Assembly: GCA_040753235.1 (NCBI GenBank)
Contig: JBFMET010000014.1
Location: 2,637 to 66,636, forward strand
Direction of reading: 5' to 3'
Length of the DNA: 64,000 bases
Origin: Pseudomonadota bacterium
GTDB lineage: Bacteria > Pseudomonadota > Gammaproteobacteria > Burkholderiales > Thiobacillaceae
Part shown: positions 4,119-41,453 of the stretch, in pieces
Position numbering within the stretch: position 1 is the stretch's first letter
Layout: the number at the start of each line of letters is the position of its first letter
Position numbers and translations under genes: made by a program
Notes under the pieces: generated by a model
Databases searched by the model: none
Told to the model about the DNA's origin: nothing
Seen by the model: only the letters and a program-made list of their open reading frames with translations

Positions 4119-4188
4119 GATGGTTTCCGGTTTGGGCGCCTGGTTCCCCGCAGGCGCGTTGCACGATCCGCTGCCGCACGCGGCAGGG

Positions 4189-4402
4189 CTCAGGCCGGTA
4201 TCCGGGCTCACGCCTGAAGTGCATCGCCTTCCCGGGCTATCCGATTTTCCGATGTGGAAAATCAGCGTTTAGCCGCCCAGTGGCGTGTGTGATGCACCGT
4301 TTAGCGCTGACCGTTGCGGGGGCAGCACAGGCTTTGCGAAAACTCGCGCACCTGTTTCCCGTTTATCCTCGGCGGCGGAACGCCGCGTCGGCACCTGAAG
4401 CT
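4189..4402 (-). ncRNA. Cobalamin (AdoCbl) riboswitch
   Basis: Minus strand carries AGGTGC...CGGGAAACAGGTG...GCCTGTGCTGCCCCCGCAACGGT...GCCACTG...GGGAAGGC...GAGCCCGGATACCGGCC, the B12-box consensus, in the btuB leader. Confidence 0.93.
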
Positions 4403-4427
4403 GCGCATTATACGCGCGCGCGGCCGA

Positions 4428-4959: not shown

Positions 4960-4999
4960 TTCCATTCCGGATCGACCGGGAAAGGAATACACTTAAGGC

Positions 5000-5181
5000 G
5001 CTCCCTGCGGTGTTCGAGGCTGGCTGCGATTTCTCTGAACCAATGCATACGTGCAAGGCTGCCGTCTATTCCGGTGCGGGTGTGCGCGTGACACGTCTCA
5101 TGTGCCCAAAGCGCCTTTGATGGCGGCCATCTTGAACCCCGGTTCAAGAGTCCGCGGTCAGTCACGGCACAGGCGGGGAGC
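5000..5181 (+). ncRNA. ssrS: 6S RNA
   Basis: About 182 nt with complementary ends (GCTCCCTG...GGGGAGC), TGAACC and CGGTTCAAG motifs, between zapA and the cyclo-ligase; upstream TTCCGG-N17-TACACT promoter. Confidence 0.9.
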
Positions 5182-5258
5182 CCTTTTTTTCCGATCCGCA
5201 TTGAAAGCGACGCCTTGTCGTCTACGCGTCTCGCTTTCCATGCGAGCCGGCCCGCCCA

Positions 5259-12330: not shown

Positions 12331-15159
12331 TCACAACACCTCGACGCTGTACGTCACCGCCAGCGTGTGGGTTGCGCCCGGCGCGACGGTGACGACGTTG
12401 TCCATCGCATTGGCCGATTCGACGCACACCATCTCGCGCCAGCCGGCGCCCGACTTGCCGCGGCCCATGTCGCCCATCTTCTCGGCCTTTTCGGTCCACG
12501 GCGTCCACACGATGGTGGACTGCGAGCCGGTCTTGGCGATGCGGATGCGGCGCTTGAGGCCGGGGTCGACGACCACGCAATCCGCGCCGGTGTTGACGTA
12601 GACGCGGTCGACCTCGCCCGCGAAGCCGATGTCGCCCTTCTGCTTCTTGCGCGCGAAGTTGTCGACCTTGTCGTGGAAGGCGCAGCCTTCGAGGCCTTCG
12701 ACCTTGACCGCGCCGATGTCGCTGATGTGGAGATAGGTGTGCAGCGCCTCGCCGATCTTCACCGGCGTGTCGCCGGTGTTGGTGGTGGCGAGTTTCACTT
12801 CGAGCCGGTCGCCGACGATGACGGTGAGCGTCAGGCGGGTGGCGTGCGGCCACTGCGCGCGCGTCTGCTCGTTCTCGACGAGTTGCAGGGCGATTTCGGT
12901 GCGCACGTCGCTGCGGCGGCGCGTGCCGACGACTTCCCACGGCACGGTGCGGGCAAAGCCGTGCGCCGGGAAACCCGGCTCGCTGTCGTGCGCGCCGAAC
13001 CACGGCCAGCACACCGGCACGCCGCCGCGGATGGATTTGCCGGCGGCGAACTTGGCCGCGTCCGACACCCACACCACCGGCGCCTGCTGCGACTTCGGCC
13101 GGTAGCTGACGACGTGCGCGCCCTGCAGGCAGATGGTCGCGCGGCCGCCGTGGTTGTCGATGTCGACGTAGGTCAGCCCGCCGACGCCGGTGCGGAAGGT
13201 GAGCTGGCCGGGGATGACGAAGCGCGCGAGCGGATCGGCGTGCACCTGCGCCGCGGTCGGGTGCTCGACCTGCGACACGTCGCGCACGGCGCCAAAAGCA
13301 GCGGAAGTCGTCATCGCGGCATAGGCACGCAGCGCAGCCGACACCGGGCGCGTGCGGTTGACCGGCTTCCAGGCCTGCGCGCCTTTCGCGTCCATCGCGG
13401 CGCGGCGGCGCGCGAGTTCGGCCTCGCTGACGTCAAGGTGGATGCGGCGCTTGGCGATGTCGATCTCGATCAGGTCGCCGTCCTCGACCAGGCCGATGGT
13501 GCCGCCCTCGGCCGCTTCCGGCGAGGCGTGGCCGATGGACAGCCCCGAGGTGCCGCCGGAGAAGCGGCCGTCGGTGAGCAGCGCACAATGCTTGCCCAGG
13601 CCCTTCGACTTCAGGTACGAGGTCGGGTAGAGCATTTCCTGCATGCCGGGACCGCCGCGCGGGCCTTCGTAGCGGATCACCACGACGTCGCCCGGCTGGA
13701 TGCGGTCGCCGAGGATGGCTTCGACCGCGGCGTCCTGCGATTCATAGACGCGCGCGGGGCCGCGGAACACGCGAAGGGTCGAGGTCGGCACGCTGGTCGT
13801 GTAGCGCAGCTGCTCGACTTCGAACATGCTCTCGTCCACGCCCGCGGTCTTGACGATGCAGCCGTCCTCGGCGAGGTTGCCGTAGAGCACGGCCAGTCCG
13901 CCGTCCTTCGAGTAGGCGTGATCGTAGTCGCGGATGCAGCCGCCCACGCGGTCGTCGTCGAGTTTCGGGAAGCGACGGTCCTGCGAGAACGCGACCTGGG
14001 TCGGCACGCCGCCGGGCGCGGCGCGGTAGTAGTCCTTGATGTCGCGGTCCTGCGTGCGACGGATGTCGTAGACGTCGATCTGCTCGCCGAGCGTCTTCAT
14101 CAGCACCGTCGGCACGTCGCGGTGGACGAGGCCGGTGCGCTCGAGTTCGCCGAGGATGGCCATCACGCCGCCGGCGCGGTGCACGTCTTCCATGTGGTAG
14201 GTCTGGATCGACGGCGCCACTTTGCTCAAGTGGGGCACGCGGCGGCTCATGCGGTCGATGTCGGCCATGGTGAAGTCGACGCCGGCTTCGTGCGCCGCGG
14301 CCAGGAGATGCAGCACGGTGTTGGTCGAGCCGCCCATGGCGATGTCGAGCGCGATGGCGTTCTCGAAGGCGTCGAAGCTGGCGATCGCGCGCGGCAGCAC
14401 GCGGGTGTCGTTCTGCTCGTAGTAGCGACGGGTGTTCTTAACGATCAGCCGCGCGGCGGCGAGGAAGAGATTGCGGCGGTCGGCGTGGGTCGCGAGCAGC
14501 GAGCCGTTGCCGGGCAGCGAGAGACCCAGCGCCTCGGTGAGGCAGTTCATCGAATTGGCGGTGAACATGCCCGAGCACGAGCCGCAGGTCGGGCAGGCCG
14601 AACGTTCGAGTTGCTGCACCTTTTCGTCCGACACCTTGTCGTCGGCCGCCGACACCATGGCGTCGACGAGATCGAGCTTGATCGTCTGCTTGTCCCACAC
14701 CACCTTGCCGGCTTCCATCGGCCCGCCGGACACGAACACGGTCGGGATGTTGAGGCGCAGCGCGGCGTTGAGCATGCCGGGGGTGATCTTGTCGCAGTTG
14801 GAAATGCACACCAGCGCGTCGGCGCAGTGCGCGTTGACCATGTACTCGACCGAGTCGGCGATGAGATCGCGCGAAGGCAGCGAGTACAGCATGCCGCCGT
14901 GGCCCATGGCGATGCCGTCGTCGACGGCGATGGTGTTGAATTCCTTGGCCACGCCGCCGGCGGCCTCGATCTCGCGCGCGACCAGCTGGCCCATGTCCTT
15001 GAGGTGCACGTGGCCGGGCACGAACTGGGTGAACGAGTTGGCAACGGCGATGATGGGCTTGTCGAAATCGCCGTCCTTCATGCCGGTGGCGCGCCACAGG
15101 GCGCGGGCGCCGGCCATGTTGCGGCCGTGGGTGGTGGTGCGGGAACGGTAGACGGGCAT
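12331..15159 (-). CDS. ilvD: Dihydroxy-acid dehydratase fused to a C-terminal D-hexose-6-phosphate mutarotase (aldose 1-epimerase family) domain
   Basis: Starts [26 protein letters not shown] (ATG 15159) with CDKITPG and [13 protein letters not shown]. After ...[11 protein letters not shown] it continues without a stop into [22 protein letters not shown] and VCVE motifs; 942 aa. Confidence 0.92.
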
Positions 15160-21290: not shown

Positions 21291-21366
<76 letters not shown>

Positions 21367-34613: not shown

Positions 34614-34688
34614 GCCTGCCGGCGGCGGCCCAGCCGTCGCCGCGGCCGGTCGCGGTATGCTTGGGCTTTGCCGCCGCTCCGCATCCGC

Positions 34689-36122
34689 ATGACCGCTGGC
34701 CGCTACGACCCCCGTTCGTTCACCCTGCTCGTCGTCGTCGCGATGGGCGTGCTCATCGTGCCGCTCGCCAGCGGCCTCATCAACGCCGTGCACGTGCTGC
34801 AGGGCGTGGCCGACACCCAGCGCCAGTTCGCTGCGACCAGCCTCGCCGTCACGCGCGACGTGCGCCAGGTCGCCGAGGCGGTCGGCCAGTTGCAGCGCGC
34901 CGCCGGGCAATACCATCTGCTGCAGGACGCCGAATTCGGCCCCACCCTGCGCCGCCGTCACGACGAACTGCAGGCGCTGCTCGCGCGCCTCGACGCGCCG
35001 CTGGCCGGCACCCCGGCGCACGCCACGCTGGCCGCCGTGCGCGCGCGCGTGCACACGCTCTACCGCGCCCTCCGGCCCGGCGCCTTCCTTGAGAGCGACC
35101 GCTTCCATGCCCAGGCGCCCGCCTTCGACGCGCTGCACGCCGCCGCACGCACCCTGCTGGTCGAAGCCGACACCGCGGTGCAGCGCGACCAGCAGGCACT
35201 GGAGGCACGGCTGCAGAGCACGCGCCAGCGCCTGATCGGGCTCGCGCTCGCGCTGATTCCGCTGACGCTGCTCCTCGCCGGCGTGTTCTCCTGGCTGATC
35301 AACCGGCCGATCCGGCAGATGAAGGCCGCGATCCAGCAGCTCGGCCGCGCCGATCTCTCCCCGCTGCCGACGATCAGCGGGCCGCACGACCTGGTCGAGC
35401 TGGGGCGCGAGCTCGACTGGCTGCGCCAGCGCCTGCAGGCGCTGGAAGAGCAGAAGCTGCGCTTCCTGCGCCACGTGTCGCACGAGCTGAAGACGCCGCT
35501 GGCGTCGCTGCGCGAAGGCGTCGCGCTGCTCGACGACGAACTCGCCGGCAGCCTCAACGCGCGCCAGCGCAGCATCGTCGCCATCATGGACGCCGGCAGC
35601 CGCGACCTGCAGAAGCGCATCGAGGACCTGATCCGCTACGGCGGCATGATGCGCGACGGCGCGCAGCTGCCTGCCACGCCGCAGCCGCTCGACGCCGCGC
35701 TCGACGCCGTGCTCGCGCGACACAAGCTCGCGCTGACGGCACGCCGCATCCGCGTCGAAACGCAACTCGACGCCGCCAGCGTGATGACCGAGCGCAGCCA
35801 GCTGGAAACCGTGCTCGACAACCTGCTGTCGAATGCGGTCAAATTCAGTCCCGAGGGCGGGCGCATCCTGGTGAAGAGCGAAGCCGCCAAGGACGCGGTC
35901 GCGGTATCGGTGTGCGACGAAGGCCCCGGCATTCCGGCCGACGAGCAGCCGCGCGTGTTCGAACCCTTCTTCCAGGGTGCGCGCCAGCCGGCGAGCACGG
36001 TGAAGGGCAGCGGGCTGGGGCTGTCGATCGTGCGCGAGACGCTGCGCGCGGCCGGCGGAACCGCCGAGATCGTCGACTGTCCGCCCTGGTCGACCTGTAT
36101 TCGCTTAACCTGGCCCGTTTAA
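34689..36122 (+). CDS. Sensor histidine kinase, GlrK/QseE-like
   Basis: Two TM segments, HAMP, FLRHVSHELKTPLASLREG, NAVKFSP, DEGPGIP, GSGLGL; operon with a lipoprotein and a sigma54 activator. Confidence 0.85.
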   Translation: MTAGRYDPRSFTLLVVVAMGVLIVPLASGLINAVHVLQGVADTQRQFAATSLAVTRDVRQVAEAVGQLQRAAGQYHLLQDAEFGPTLRRRHDELQALLARLDAPLAGTPAHATLAAVRARVHTLYRALRPGAFLESDRFHAQAPAFDALHAAARTLLVEADTAVQRDQQALEARLQSTRQRLIGLALALIPLTLLLAGVFSWLINRPIRQMKAAIQQLGRADLSPLPTISGPHDLVELGRELDWLRQRLQALEEQKLRFLRHVSHELKTPLASLREGVALLDDELAGSLNARQRSIVAIMDAGSRDLQKRIEDLIRYGGMMRDGAQLPATPQPLDAALDAVLARHKLALTARRIRVETQLDAASVMTERSQLETVLDNLLSNAVKFSPEGGRILVKSEAAKDAVAVSVCDEGPGIPADEQPRVFEPFFQGARQPASTVKGSGLGLSIVRETLRAAGGTAEIVDCPPWSTCIRLTWPV

Positions 36123-36150: not shown

Positions 36151-36608
36151 ATGACTGTCAAACCGCTTCTACTTGCCGTGCTGTTGCTGACGCTCGGCGC
36201 CTGCGCCCAGTTCGCCGACTCGCCGGCGCTGCGCGCGCTGCAGCCCGAAACCGGCGCCCACGCCATGCTGGGCGAACTGTCGCGCGTCGCGTCGCTCTCG
36301 GCCGAACAGCGGCGCCGCGAACTCGCGGGGCTCGAAGGCGCCCGTCTCGACGACGCGCGGCGCTTCCAGCTCGCCGCGCTGCTCGAGCGCGACGACAGCC
36401 CCGATGCGCCCGAACGCGGCCTGCGCGCGCTCAATGCACTCGACCCGTCCGACGCCCGCGCGCAGGCGCTGGTCGAACTGATGAAGCGTTCGCTGCGCGC
36501 GCGCATCGAGCTGCGTCAGCAGAGCGCGCGCGCGCAGGAACTGCAGGACAAGCTCGACCAGATCAAGACCCTGGAAAAATCCCTGCAACAGCGCACCCCC
36601 GCCAAGCC

Positions 36609-36612
<4 letters not shown>
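36151..36612 (+). CDS. Lipoprotein, QseG/YfhG-like
   Basis: Lipobox LTLGA/C, helical, ends ...LQDKLDQIKTLEKSL; lies between the kinase and the regulator. Confidence 0.7.
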
Positions 36613-37961
<1,349 letters not shown>

Positions 37962-37999
37962 GCCGCCGGTTGTGCTCGTTTCCGCCCGGGATGCGCCGT

Positions 38000-38180
38000 T
38001 GTCGCCGATCGCCGACTCGCGCTTCTCATAAAATCAAACACTTGGCAATTTGACCCTCATCCTGTCGCTCTATGGCGACGGATTTCGGCCTTTTGCGTCG
38101 CATCGCGCCGACGCCCTCCCGGCACGACGCTCTAATACACTGTTATCAAAGCATTAATCCAGACTGGCACGGTCGTCGCT
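38000..38180 (+). promoter_or_regulatory. Sigma54 promoter with three GTC-N10-GAC enhancer boxes and two IHF sites
   Basis: Boxes at 38000-17, 38063-80 and 38096-113; WATCAANNNNTTR at 38032-44 and 38144-56; TGGCACGGTCGTCGCT (-24/-12) at 38165-80. Confidence 0.75.
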
Positions 38181-38233
38181 GTATCCGGCTTGAGTGCTAC
38201 GGCATTCATTCCGACTCACACAAGGAGATAGCG

Positions 38234-38713
38234 ATGAAGAACCTCAAGCATTCCATTCTGACCCTCGCGCTCGCCGGCGCCCTCGGCACCGCGGGCGCCG
38301 CCCTCGCCAACCCGGTGATGCCCAATTTCAAGGCCGCCGACAGCAACGGCGACGGCGCGGTCAGCCTGCAGGAATTCATGGCCGTCGGCGGCTACGAGCA
38401 GGCCTTTCACGAGGGCGACACCAACGGCGACAAGCAGCTCACCAGCGACGAATACGCCAAGGCCGTCGCCAACAACGACCGCCTCAAGGCCGGCAAGTAC
38501 GTCGACGACGCCTGGATCACCGCCAAGGTGAAGGCCTTGCTGGTGAAAGACGAGGGCGTGAAGGGCCTCGAGGTGAAAGTGGAAACCTACAAGGGCAACG
38601 TCCAGCTCTCGGGCTGGGTCAGCCACCCGACCCAGATCGCGCAGGCCGAGCGCATCGCGCGCGGCGTCGACGGCGTGAAGGGCGTGCGGAACGACCTGCA
38701 GGTCAAGCGCTGA
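38234..38713 (+). CDS. Periplasmic EF-hand + BON domain protein
   Basis: AAGGAG RBS, signal peptide, DSNGDGAVSLQE and DTNGDKQLTSDE EF-hand loops, DDAWITAKVKALL...GNVQLSG BON domain. Confidence 0.85.
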   Translation: MKNLKHSILTLALAGALGTAGAALANPVMPNFKAADSNGDGAVSLQEFMAVGGYEQAFHEGDTNGDKQLTSDEYAKAVANNDRLKAGKYVDDAWITAKVKALLVKDEGVKGLEVKVETYKGNVQLSGWVSHPTQIAQAERIARGVDGVKGVRNDLQVKR

Positions 38714-38771
38714 CCCTGCTCCGGCCACGGCGCGGTCGTGGCCGGCCTGTCCCGACATCGAGGAGCGAACA

Positions 38772-39119
38772 ATGAACCTGCGACACCCGCATCAAGACGA
38801 GCACATGACCCACTACGAATGGAGCGGCGCCCTCACGGCGATTCCGCTGAACTTTCCCGCCGGCACCCGCCGCGACCACCCCTGGCACGCCTCGACCGCG
38901 ATCCTCGCGCTGCTGGCCAGCCTGCTCATCCTCAACGGCTGCGACCGCCAGGGCCCGGCCGAAGAGGCCGGCGCGCAGATCGACGAGGCCGTGCAGGACA
39001 TGAAGGACGCCGTCGACCCGCCGGGACCGGCCCAGGAGGCGGGCCGCGCGATCGACGACGCGCGCGAGGATCTCGGCGAAAAAGTCGAGCAGATCGGCGA
39101 GGACATGCAGAAGCCGTGA
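38772..39119 (+). CDS. Small putative lipoprotein with acidic repeats
   Basis: GAGGAG RBS, LILNG/C lipobox-like site, duplicated GPA(E/Q)EAG..ID(E/D)A. Confidence 0.6.
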   Translation: MNLRHPHQDEHMTHYEWSGALTAIPLNFPAGTRRDHPWHASTAILALLASLLILNGCDRQGPAEEAGAQIDEAVQDMKDAVDPPGPAQEAGRAIDDAREDLGEKVEQIGEDMQKP

Positions 39120-39139
39120 GCCGGCGCGCCGCCAGCAAA

Positions 39140-39167
39140 AAGGCCGGGCGCTCGCGCGCCCGGCCTT
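39140..39167. terminator. Hairpin terminator between convergent genes
   Basis: AAGGCCGGGCGC-TCGC-GCGCCCGGCCTT. Confidence 0.7.
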
Positions 39168-39187
39168 GTATGGGAACCGCCCTGCGA

Positions 39188-40357
39188 TCAGAAGCGGTAG
39201 CTGACCATCAGCTGCCAGTTGAGCTGGCTGTGCTCGATGGTGATGCCTTGGTTACCCATGGGCGGCAACGCGCCGGTACCGGTTACCGCCGTCTCAGGCA
39301 CGTAGCTCACGGCGAAATTGAGTTCCGACTGCTTGCTGAACGCGTAACCGAAGCCCACCGTGTAATGATGCTCGACGATCGCCGGCCACAGAAAATTGAC
39401 GTTCGCATCAGGAATCGGGTTCTTGCCGTAGTTGTAGCCGACGCGGCCGGTGAGGGCGTCGCTGAACGCGTACGCCATGCCCAGCGACACCACGGTCTGG
39501 TCGTCCCAGTCCTGCTGGAAGGGTACGACCAGACCGCCGGGGCCGCGGATCGTCACGGTGTTCATGGAGTCGCCCCACAGCAGCTGCTTGACGTCGGCCG
39601 CGAACAGCAGACGCGCGTTCGCCTGCCAGGCGAGACCGAGACCGACGACCGCGGGCATGTCGAAGCCCTCGACGGTGTAGCCGTCGCCCTTGAGCTTGGG
39701 CAGGTTGCCGGCGGTCTGGTAGACGCCGCCGACGGTCAGCGCGTCGTCGAGCCTGTAGGTGAAGCCGAGCTTGGCGGCGAGGCTGTAGCCCTTGGCCGCG
39801 CCGGTGAAGTCGCTGCCGTCCTTGAAGTTGATTTCCTTGCTCAAGGGCGTGTTGTTGATGTCGGCCACCAGGTCCATGCCCGCCCACACGACGTCGACGC
39901 TGCCGCCCACGGTAAAGCGCTCGTTGACGTTCCAGGCCAGCGGGAAGATCAGCCGGCCCACCCCCACCTGCGCCATGTCGCCGCTGGCGTACTCGGTACC
40001 CATGCCGCCCTGGCCGTAGATGCCGACGCCATAGGTGAAGTCGCCCGCCTTGCGAACGAAACCGAAGGCCGGCATGTAGAAGGCGTCGGCGCTGGAGTCG
40101 CCCAGGCCGCTTGCCGACACGTCCGGGCCGACATGGCCCAGCATGAGGTCGATGCGGCTGCCCGGCGCCATCAGGCCCAGCGTGGCCGGGTTGTTCGCCA
40201 TGGCGGCGGTGCCGTTGTCGTAAGCCAGCGATGCGCCGCCCATGCCGGCAGCGATGGGGCCGTAGCCTTCCATCAGCATGCCATTGGTGGCATGGGCGAA
40301 ACCGGGCATGGCGAGGCCCAGGGCGGCCAGCGCGGCCGCGTATGCGTTCTGTCGCAT
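39188..40357 (-). CDS. OmpP1/FadL/TodX outer membrane transporter
   Basis: Signal peptide, GMGGASLA...NNPA, QGGMGTEY, RVGYNYGKNPI, C-terminal SYRF; ATG 40357. Confidence 0.85.
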   Translation of the reverse strand: MRQNAYAAALAALGLAMPGFAHATNGMLMEGYGPIAAGMGGASLAYDNGTAAMANNPATLGLMAPGSRIDLMLGHVGPDVSASGLGDSSADAFYMPAFGFVRKAGDFTYGVGIYGQGGMGTEYASGDMAQVGVGRLIFPLAWNVNERFTVGGSVDVVWAGMDLVADINNTPLSKEINFKDGSDFTGAAKGYSLAAKLGFTYRLDDALTVGGVYQTAGNLPKLKGDGYTVEGFDMPAVVGLGLAWQANARLLFAADVKQLLWGDSMNTVTIRGPGGLVVPFQQDWDDQTVVSLGMAYAFSDALTGRVGYNYGKNPIPDANVNFLWPAIVEHHYTVGFGYAFSKQSELNFAVSYVPETAVTGTGALPPMGNQGITIEHSQLNWQLMVSYRF

Positions 40358-40904: not shown

Positions 40905-41453
40905 ATGAAACTCGCCCTCGCCCTCTCGCTCGCCGCCCTGGCCGGCGCCGGCCCGGTTCTCGCCGACCCGCCCGCCCATGCGCCGGCGCACGGCTACTAC
41001 AAGGACAAGCACAATAAAAAGCACCACAAGGGCAGGAGCGGCGTCGTCTACGGCCACGACTACGGCATCGCGTCCGGTCGCTGCAACCGCGACGAAATCG
41101 GCACGGTGATCGGCGGCGTGACCGGCGCGGTGATCGGCGGCCAGGTCGCCGGCCGCGACGACCGCGTGGTCGGCATGGTCGTCGGCGGCGTCATCGGCGC
41201 GGTGCTCGGCCACGCCATCGGCGACGCCATGGACGAGCGCGACCGCGCCTGCATGGGCCACGCGCTGGAACTCGGCCGCACCGGGGTGCCGGTGGTGTGG
41301 ACCAGCGGCGGCCACCGCTACCATTTCACGCCGCGCGGCGACGCGCGCGACGGCTGCCGCTACGCCACCGTGAGGGTCGACGGCCGCCGGCCGAAGGACG
41401 TGCTGGCCTGCCCGTCCGGCCGCCGCGGGGAGTGGCATTTCCGCGGCGTCTGA
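40905..41453 (+). CDS. Glycine-zipper 2TM surface antigen-like protein
   Basis: Signal peptide, PPAHAPAHGY, glycine zipper GTVIGGVTGAVIGG...GAVLGHAIG, C-terminal W...CR...AC domain. Confidence 0.78.
   Translation: MKLALALSLAALAGAGPVLADPPAHAPAHGYYKDKHNKKHHKGRSGVVYGHDYGIASGRCNRDEIGTVIGGVTGAVIGGQVAGRDDRVVGMVVGGVIGAVLGHAIGDAMDERDRACMGHALELGRTGVPVVWTSGGHRYHFTPRGDARDGCRYATVRVDGRRPKDVLACPSGRRGEWHFRGV

Follow-up and report, generated by a model that had tools for sequence, protein, structure and literature searches.

The subject of this analysis is a predicted sigma-54 promoter directly downstream of a gene for a GlrR (QseF)-type response regulator, found in a 64-kb stretch of GC-rich DNA from a Thiobacillus-like betaproteobacterium (assembly GCA_040753235.1, contig JBFMET010000014.1, forward-strand positions 2,637 to 66,636). 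We refer to this whole stretch as the window, and all coordinates without a locus label are positions within it. The locus comprises, in order, gltB-gltD, a sensor kinase gene, a small lipoprotein gene, the sigma-54 response regulator gene (glrR), a gene for a 159-amino acid (aa) protein with an EF-hand pair and a BON domain (EF-hand-BON), a gene for a 115-aa protein, and a convergent gene for a FadL-family outer-membrane protein. The promoter lies in the 272-bp intergenic region that separates the glrR stop codon from the start of the 159-aa gene. The nearest public locus, from a Thiobacillus metagenome-assembled genome (MAG), shares 97% identity in the regulator and 89% in the target protein. 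Fifteen Thiobacillus loci have in common the order kinase, lipoprotein, regulator, promoter, EF-hand-BON gene, small gene, (fadL), glycine-zipper gene and hemE, and the 115-aa second gene is syntenic in 14 of these 15.

The kinase gene (34668..36122, plus strand) encodes a GlrK/QseE-like sensor histidine kinase with Pfam HAMP, HisKA and HATPase_c domains, which aligns over its full length with E. coli GlrK (33.6% identity, residues 15-483, E 2.8e-67) and also with Xenorhabdus GlrK. The lipoprotein gene (36151..36612, plus strand; lipobox LGAC) occupies the same position as E. coli qseG and ends in a 4-nt overlap with the start of glrR, as qseG also overlaps glrR in E. coli; the three genes are arranged in the QseE/QseG/QseF order. 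BLASTP of this lipoprotein against E. coli QseG was not significant, and no match was found in Pfam or NCBIfam. In an hhalign comparison, however, a profile of 11 beta- and gammaproteobacterial lipoproteins matched a profile of three enterobacterial QseG proteins over about 100 C-terminal columns (probability 78.9%, E 1.6e-5), and a C-terminal motif, KL(D/E)xLxxIE(K/R)xL, is common to the betaproteobacterial lipoprotein family and enterobacterial QseG. We regard the window lipoprotein as a probable remote relative of QseG and as the weakest part of the module assignment.

The regulator gene (36609..37961, plus strand) encodes a REC domain, an AAA+ domain with the GAFTGA motif (encoded at 37242) and an HTH_8 domain; the receiver aspartate is D54 by count. 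Among NCBIfam models, GlrR gives the best score (583.8 bits), ahead of NtrC (436), AtoC (397) and ZraR (392), and a full-length comparison with E. coli K-12 GlrR gives 54.5% identity. Its recognition helix fits the pattern GRNRTE[FV]Y[KR]LL, reading GRNRTE(V)YRLL where enterobacterial GlrR has GRNRTEFYKLL, whereas NtrC-type paralogues read GWGRNTLTRKL. These features support its assignment as a GlrR orthologue. Because of the identities of regulator and kinase, the overlapping lipoprotein gene and the profile match, the trio is assigned by sequence to the GlrK/QseG/GlrR module. We also considered Ralstonia PehR as a previously described betaproteobacterial GlrR and rejected it, since the paper merely aligns PehR with GlrR as an NtrC-family protein and holds no information on target sites.

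The intergenic region contains three predicted GlrR boxes, two sites for integration host factor (IHF) and one sigma-54 element. Box 1 (TGTCGCCGATCGCCGACT, 38000-38017) has the form TGTC-N10-GACT and begins 39 bp past the glrR stop, box 2 (TGTCGCTCTATGGCGACG, 38063-38080) has the form TGTC-N10-GACG, and box 3 (CGTCGCATCGCGCCGACG, 38096-38113), a weak and clade-specific site, the form CGTC-N10-GACG. Their start-to-start spacings are 63 bp and 33 bp, and all three have a longer core in common, GTCGC-N5-GSCGAC. IHF-like site 1 (AATCAAACACTTG, 38032-38044, plus strand) lies between boxes 1 and 2, and site 2 (TATCAAAGCATTA, 38144-38156, plus strand) lies further downstream; these are the only two exact matches to the IHF consensus WATCAANNNNTTR in the 64-kb window, where 0.20 would be expected. 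The -24/-12 element (TGGCACGGTCGTCGCT, TGGCAC-N5-TCGCT, 38165-38180, plus strand; GG at 38166-67, GC at 38178-79) is the sole zero-mismatch match in the window to TGGCAC-N5-TNGCT. As the C of the -12 GC falls on 38179, transcription is predicted to start near 38191, which would leave a leader of about 43 nt before the ATG at 38234. The initial annotation had described the three boxes and their spacing, both exact IHF matches, the GG-N10-GC element and a leader of about 40 nt, and the sequence bears out each of these at the positions given, with the start codon at 38234 instead of 38235.

The predicted transcript would begin with a stem-loop (UGAGUGC-UACG-GCAUUCA, 38191..38208, plus strand) and contains a ribosome-binding site, AGGAGA (38223..38228, plus strand), 5 nt before the ATG. 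The fold energy of the stem-loop is not significant (-11.4 kcal/mol, z -1.0). Across 13 Thiobacillus loci its two arms, GAGTGC and GCATTC, show no change and the 4-5-nt loop is variable, and the invariance of the arms precludes a covariation test; the hairpin may act as a 5' stabilizer or a regulatory element. No sigma-70-like promoter was detected between 37900 and 39300. We considered and rejected an alternative start at an in-frame ATG further 5' (38072), from which the open reading frame (ORF) would run through the promoter, since the region evolves with insertions and deletions and conservation is confined to the motifs.

Simple counts of the short motifs are not informative. TGTC-N10-GAC occurs 10 times in the window against 7.9 expected, which is not above chance, YGTC-N10-GAC 17 times against 26.6 expected, and the one-mismatch sigma-54 pattern is not above chance either. 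For this reason, window counts were dropped as evidence, and conservation and an independent position weight matrix (PWM) were used instead; the significance of the boxes rests on their clustering, their longer core and their conservation. Relatives from Thiobacillus were gathered by a search with the target protein, and 13 of their upstream regions were aligned (mean column identity 59%). Of the 40 non-coding columns that are invariant ahead of the start in this alignment, 32 were counted within box 1, IHF site 1, box 2 or the -24/-12 element. In detail, the TGTC and AC columns of box 1, GTC...G..GAC of box 2, A.CAA....T of IHF site 1 and TGGCACG.T..TCGCT of the sigma-54 element are invariant; the leader stem and the ribosome-binding site also carry invariant columns. 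The proposal in the initial annotation that the operator code is conserved therefore holds for boxes 1 and 2, which are footprinted in all 13 loci, whereas box 3 is specific to the clade of the window. The PWM was built from 86 boxes, all taken from non-Thiobacillus genomes, and applied to both strands of the window. Box 2 obtained the best score of the entire window (22.6 bits), and boxes 1 (14.8 bits) and 3 (11.2 bits, minus strand) were also among the top sites.

The layout of these elements closely resembles that of the enterobacterial glmY promoter. The sigma-54 promoters of the small RNA (sRNA) genes glmY and glmZ of E. coli, Yersinia and Salmonella are activated by GlrR (QseF) with IHF (Göpel 2011, PMC3045617; Reichenbach 2009, as cited in PMC3045617). 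At glmY, GlrR recognizes three sites of the form TGTCN10GACA, all located over 100 bp ahead of the start. Of these activator-binding sites (ABS), ABS2 and ABS3 are essential and ABS1 can be dispensed with; IHF is needed as well, and an IHF-like site lies on either side of ABS3 (PMC3045617). We scanned the upstream region of E. coli K-12 glmY with the same patterns and expressed positions relative to the annotated glmY 5' end or to the predicted start in the window. Boxes were found at -230, -197 and -134 in E. coli and at about -191, -128 and -95 in the window, IHF matches at -177 and -58 versus -159 and about -47, with the first of each pair located between the boxes spaced 63 bp apart, and the sigma-54 element at -27 versus -26. 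The same 63-bp pair is found upstream of glmY in Xenorhabdus (boxes at -245, -213 and -150, IHF consensus at -193) and in Arsenophonus (boxes at -216 and -153).

The two systems thus have in common an orthologous regulator and kinase and, remotely, the lipoprotein; the inverted repeat TGTC[GT]C-N6-G[CA]GACA; a 63-bp box pair at nearly equal distance from the start (-191/-128 versus -197/-134) with an IHF consensus between the boxes; and a proximal IHF-like site followed by a -24/-12 element at -26 or -27. Because spacing and distance agree, box 1 and box 2, both conserved in Thiobacillus, would be the counterparts of the two essential E. coli sites, ABS2 and ABS3. A third box lies 33 bp from the pair in both cases, promoter-proximal in the window and distal in E. 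coli, and is poorly conserved in both lineages. In contrast to glmY, the predicted product in the window is an mRNA for periplasmic proteins and not a GlmY/GlmZ sRNA, the module lies 3' of glrR and not 5' of glrK, and no overlapping sigma-70 promoter was detected in the window, where the -12 reads TCGCT. Taken together, these comparisons support homology of the window promoter, in operator sequence and geometry, with the enterobacterial glmY promoter. A protein-coding target is not unprecedented: the P2 promoter of the E. coli envelope-stress gene rpoE is another reported QseF-dependent sigma-54 promoter (cited in PMC6075780), and so protein-coding envelope targets already lie within the known scope of the system. 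The window promoter resembles rpoE P2 in placing a protein-coding gene related to the envelope under predicted QseF and sigma-54 control, and differs from it in target gene and organism.

The 159-aa gene (38234..38713, plus strand) encodes a predicted periplasmic protein, in which a signal peptide (…GAALA/NP) is followed by an EF-hand pair (Pfam EF-hand_1, 35 bits) and a single BON domain at residues 91-158 (Pfam BON, 76 bits). Both EF loops, DSNGDGAVSLQE and DTNGDKQLTSDE, are canonical, with 12 residues and D/N/D...E ligands, and the ligands D36, N38, D40, E47, D62, D66 and E73 are invariant in 28 homologues. These motifs fit the initial description of the product as a periplasmic calcium-binding BON protein, with calcium binding as a predicted property. 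In public annotations the family appears as "BON domain-containing" or "hyperosmotically inducible" protein. The tandem BON arrangement of OsmY-type proteins is not present, and against the NCBIfam OsmY model the protein scores 83, below the cutoff of 174. In an AlphaFold2 model, a BON fold (alpha-beta-beta-alpha-beta) comes after helix-loop-helix pairs, and the mean predicted local distance difference test (pLDDT) score is 74, rising to 86-91 across the EF-hand pair; the predicted template modeling (pTM) score is low (0.47), as expected for a two-domain protein. The closest structures identified by Foldseek are E. coli OsmY (8RJX; 41% identity over 75 columns, E 2.7e-6, one domain), DolP and BonA. 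The target resembles these proteins in its C-terminal BON fold and in its predicted secretion through a signal peptide. It differs from OsmY in having one BON domain instead of two and a fused N-terminal EF-hand pair, and from DolP in not being a lipoprotein; it also differs from osmY, which is RpoS-dependent, in its predicted control by sigma-54 and GlrR. Its small size, predicted Sec export and canonical 12-residue EF loops with invariant ligands make it similar in type to bacterial periplasmic or secreted EF-hand proteins such as P. aeruginosa EfhP (PMC9132961) and Caulobacter CaBP (PMC13171946), but its fusion to a BON domain sets it apart.

The second gene (38772..39119, plus strand), preceded by a GAGGAG ribosome-binding site, encodes a small membrane-anchored or lipoprotein-like protein of 115 aa with an acidic C-terminal part. 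A conserved N-terminal region of about 45 aa (…YEW.G…HPWHAS) precedes a hydrophobic segment that ends in LILNGC, an atypical lipoprotein signal peptide, and no Pfam or NCBIfam family matches the protein. The initial annotation as a lipoprotein can be kept only tentatively: the lipobox-like LNGC speaks for it, and the unusually long conserved region before it speaks against it. No T-rich terminator was found between the two genes, and they are probably co-transcribed. A GC-rich hairpin (GGCCGGGCGC-TCGC-GCGCCCGGCC, 39142..39165) between the operon and the convergent fadL-like gene likely ends the operon transcript; on the minus strand its T-run makes it a classical terminator for fadL, and on the plus strand it consists only of the hairpin and TTGT.

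The same arrangement recurs well beyond Thiobacillus. An alignment-based search with the DNA-binding domain gave 80 further loci, mostly from Betaproteobacteria with some from Gammaproteobacteria. In all, 98 GlrR-type loci were examined, and at least one box together with a sigma-54 element directly follows the glrR stop in 65 of them. The box consensus across these loci is TGTCGC-N6-GCGACA. In 41 of the 43 two-box promoters from outside Thiobacillus, the boxes are 63-68 bp apart (63 bp in Thiobacillus), and in 24 of the 43, mostly from Comamonadaceae, box 2 is 111-113 bp from the -24 (102-103 bp in Thiobacillus). The adjoining genes vary by lineage. EF-hand-BON or EF-hand proteins are the targets in Thiobacillus, an EF-hand-BON protein in a Methylophilaceae MAG (L120), EF-hand proteins in Sulfuriferula and Wenzhouxiangella, and BON proteins in Herbaspirillum and Methyloversatilis. 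In Polaromonas, Hydrogenophaga and relatives the target is MdoG/OpgG (Pfam 645 bits in L116), in Variovorax a conserved 67-aa peptide (MTALTSPSFALRPQRDGLRQKQFSLSRPR…FKRFPAIGDTP) followed by an OpgH-like GT2 protein, and in L145 a glycine-zipper lipoprotein. In T. denitrificans, T. thioparus and others, a second box and sigma-54 promoter precede the gene for a 55-aa DUF1328 (YtjA-like) protein. All of these target families are envelope or periplasmic proteins, and some loci have possible sRNAs instead. The identity of the regulator, the glmY-like geometry, the footprints, this recurrence and the lack of any GlmY/GlmZ match support the central claim of the initial annotation, a GlrR/IHF/sigma-54 operator wired to an envelope gene and not to GlmY, which agrees with all the computational tests applied.

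On these grounds, we consider it highly probable that a GlrR (QseF)-dependent, IHF-assisted sigma-54 promoter drives the EF-hand-BON gene. In the proposed mechanism, the GlrK-like kinase, probably helped by the QseG-like lipoprotein, would phosphorylate GlrR at Asp54, and phosphorylated GlrR would bind the two conserved inverted repeats of the type TGTCGC-N6-GCGACA, 63 bp apart at 38000 and 38063, and perhaps also the weak third site at 38096. IHF would introduce bends at 38032-38044 and within the A/T-rich tract at about 38144-38156, and the GAFTGA-containing AAA+ domain of GlrR would remodel sigma-54 RNA polymerase at TGGCAC-N5-TCGCT (38165-38180). Transcription would then start near 38191 and yield an mRNA with a leader of about 43 nt, carrying the conserved 5' stem-loop and a strong ribosome-binding site, that encodes the secreted EF-hand-pair/BON protein and probably also the small membrane protein or lipoprotein 3' of it.

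Several observations weigh against this interpretation. The right half-sites of boxes 1 and 2 read GACT and GACG instead of GACA, and the -12 element reads TCGCT where the consensus is TTGCW. Box 3 is degenerate or absent in two close relatives (L081, L082) and in the T. denitrificans group and is not kept beyond the closest relatives, and the exact match at IHF site 2 is found in the window alone, with an A/T-rich tract retained at this position in the relatives. The score of the regulator, 583.8 bits, lies below the cutoff of 763 for the NCBIfam GlrR equivalog, which is an enterobacterial equivalog, and rpoN is not among the genes of the 64-kb window. Finally, in the orthologous T. denitrificans locus the second gene has more reads than the EF-hand-BON gene; for this reason, a separate internal promoter for the second gene is possible. 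No RNA run containing the window sequence was found, three further runs (X42-X44) lack the locus, and two Logan contigs (X26, X27) cover the complete intergenic region but carry no information on transcript ends. The expression data come from one stranded T. denitrificans RNA-seq run (X45), in which reads on the orthologous gene are too few for mapping of a 5' end. In this run, depth is about 100 over glrR and decays across the DUF1328 gene to its terminator, and it is 1-5 over the EF-hand-BON orthologue. A nearly silent target beside an expressed glrR fits, weakly, an activator-dependent promoter in the absence of its signal.

An alternative is that the promoter is real but is activated by another enhancer-binding protein, such as NtrC, with the boxes being incidental. 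The location of gltB and gltD directly 5' of the kinase gene would suit NtrC, and counts of the short box motif in the window do not exceed chance. Yet upstream conservation is highest in the boxes, which fit the extended enterobacterial GlrR site TGTC[GT]C-N6-G[CA]GACA and accompany glrR in 65 of 98 loci spread over many genera, regardless of the neighboring genes; moreover, the recognition helix is of the GlrR and not the NtrC type, and no NtrC-type TGCACC-N5-GGTGCA was seen by eye in the region. We therefore judge this explanation very unlikely.

A similarly low probability applies to the idea that the main product is an RNA, either derived from the 5' leader or a dual-function sRNA in the role of GlmY, with the coding region being secondary. 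It draws on the invariant stem-loop at the 5' end of the leader and on a Burkholderiales locus, described below, in which a promoter of the same type is followed by a structured RNA without an ORF and a terminator. Against it, the leader of about 43 nt leads directly into a strong ribosome-binding site with no terminator, and the protein is under clear purifying selection that includes the EF-hand ligands. Rfam searches for GlmY and GlmZ gave no match in the 64-kb window at the gathering score and none at E<=10 in 37500-39400, no other credible Rfam match was found near the promoter, and neither GlmY/GlmZ nor any other credible match turned up in the betaproteobacterial loci; the same search detects GlmY 5' of glrK in the Xenorhabdus and Arsenophonus loci. 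A leader of this predicted length leaves no room for a GlmY-sized sRNA, as stated earlier.

Less probable still is that the boxes serve chiefly to control glrK-qseG-glrR itself, for instance by blocking read-through or as an autoregulatory sink, and do not activate the downstream gene. Their position only 39 bp past the glrR stop could be read in this way, as could the overlap of box 1 with the end of glrR in many relatives (offsets -12 to -34) and the lack of a clear terminator after glrR in the window. Against it stand the fixed distance between box and sigma-54 element (102-103 bp in Thiobacillus, 111-113 bp in 24 of 43 others) and a layout equal to the activating one at glmY; moreover, in loci such as that of T. 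denitrificans, in which an extra gene separates glrR from the promoter, the boxes travel with the promoter and not with glrR. Least probable of all, a chance origin of the motif cluster in a GC-rich intergenic region without regulatory function, as might be suggested by individual motif counts no higher than in shuffled sequence, is effectively refuted by the comparative data, namely the footprinting, the independent PWM, the unique IHF and sigma-54 matches and the recurrence across dozens of genera.

A GlrR-dependent promoter of the EF-hand-BON gene would extend a mechanism that is already known, and for this single window the result is solid but unsurprising. Its wider interest lies in the comparison between lineages. 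QseE/QseF (GlrK/GlrR) has been described as a system of Enterobacteriaceae, with glmY, glmZ and rpoE P2 as reported direct targets and a natural signal that is still poorly defined (PMC6075780, PMC3045617). The present survey indicates that the whole cassette (operator sequence, 63-bp spacing, placement of IHF sites, sigma-54 element) is retained far beyond the enterics and appears to drive envelope or periplasmic proteins there rather than GlmY. Since the cassette is conserved and adjoins envelope genes, the gene next to glrR offers an easy read-out of the regulon in each lineage. In the searchable literature, we found no description of this geometry outside Enterobacterales, of the usual place of the cassette just after glrR, or of outputs related to osmoregulated periplasmic glucans (OPGs), BON, EF-hand or DUF1328 proteins outside Enterobacterales.

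Because of the target genes across lineages, a role in periplasmic osmotic or ionic homeostasis, or in envelope homeostasis more generally, seems more likely than not. In E. coli, OPGs, OsmY and YtjA are associated with osmotic adaptation, and osmY is a neighbor of ytjA. An envelope-stress role had been suggested initially from the target gene of the window, and this view gains weight from the MdoG/OpgG, OpgH-like, BON, EF-hand, DUF1328 and glycine-zipper targets found elsewhere. Together, the targets suggest the hypothesis that the signal is periplasmic osmolarity or divalent cations. A broader proposal, which we make tentatively and hold to be possible rather than probable, is that GlrK-QseG-GlrR is an ancient proteobacterial system of periplasmic osmotic and cation homeostasis, whose ancestral linked outputs were envelope proteins (opgGH, OsmY-like BON, EF-hand and DUF1328/YtjA-like), and that the wiring to GlmY was a later rewiring of the same enhancer cassette. 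If this were the case, lineage-specific sRNAs such as the L008 candidate described below would represent independent captures of the cassette, the EF-hand-BON protein could be a calcium-switched periplasmic chaperone or lipid-binding factor, and the target set would point to the periplasmic ionic or osmotic state as the signal of QseE/QseF.

The survey also flagged candidate GlrR-dependent sRNAs outside Enterobacterales. In a Burkholderiales MAG (L008:5367-5690, JANMNT010000125.1), two GlrR boxes and the promoter TGGCACGCCAATTGCA follow glrR and precede about 130 nt without an ORF, which fold strongly (-62.4 kcal/mol, z -5.5) and end in a terminator (GGGGTGGTC-GAAA-GATCACCCC and T7); no Rfam match was found for this stretch at E<=1. 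We regard it as a candidate GlrR-dependent sRNA. Locus L107 has a shorter hairpin and T8 in the same position, the fold of which is not significant. In Kushneria, the cassette lies 5' of glrK, as in enterics, and in L010 it is divergent from the kinase gene. The Kushneria sp. locus (L009:1175-1760) contains three boxes 5' of glrK at intervals of 33 and 67 bp, an arrangement like that of E. coli glmY, together with TGGCACGTCTTTGGCT, and about 330 nt after the promoter end in a strong terminator (GAGAGCCGGCCCTGCCGGCTC and T9). This stretch, which has no Rfam match at the gathering score, could be an sRNA in the position of GlmY or a small-protein gene in Halomonadaceae.

Two further variations of the cassette were observed. 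In T. denitrificans DSM 12475 (L090:2867-3240) and six other loci (L098-L101, L103, L104), the second cassette is located between glrR and the EF-hand-BON promoter, with a box of the form CGTC/TGTC-N10-GACA/G 2 nt past the glrR stop and TGGCAC-N5-TCTGC about 94 nt past the stop. It precedes the gene for the 55-aa DUF1328 (YtjA-like) membrane protein, which is followed by GGGAGCCTGGCTCCC and a T-run terminator; this insert is absent from the window and its closest relatives (L081-L083, L085). In 14 loci of Comamonadaceae and relatives (L111, L113, L116, L122, L126, L134, L136, L139, L146, L149, L150, L161, L163 and L167), the promoter TGGCACAGGGTTTGCC lies about 145-210 bp past the glrR stop and the ATG only 0-1 nt after the predicted start. 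This implies that these mRNAs, which encode MdoG/OpgG or the Variovorax 67-aa peptide, would be leaderless transcripts from a sigma-54 promoter.

Elsewhere in the window, the second-best distinct PWM match (14637-14654, TGTCGTCGGCCGCCGACA, 16.6 bits) is the only other site above 14; it lies within a 1014-aa ORF with no sigma-54 element nearby and was rejected as probably due to chance. Rfam matches at gathering score comprise a cobalamin riboswitch (4176-4412, minus strand, 86 bits), a 6S RNA (4999-5183, plus strand, 68.6 bits) and a tRNA (21291-21363, plus strand). Two genes 3' of the operon, at 40905-41453, lies a gene for a glycine-zipper lipoprotein (Rick_17kDa_Anti / Gly-zipper_Omp).

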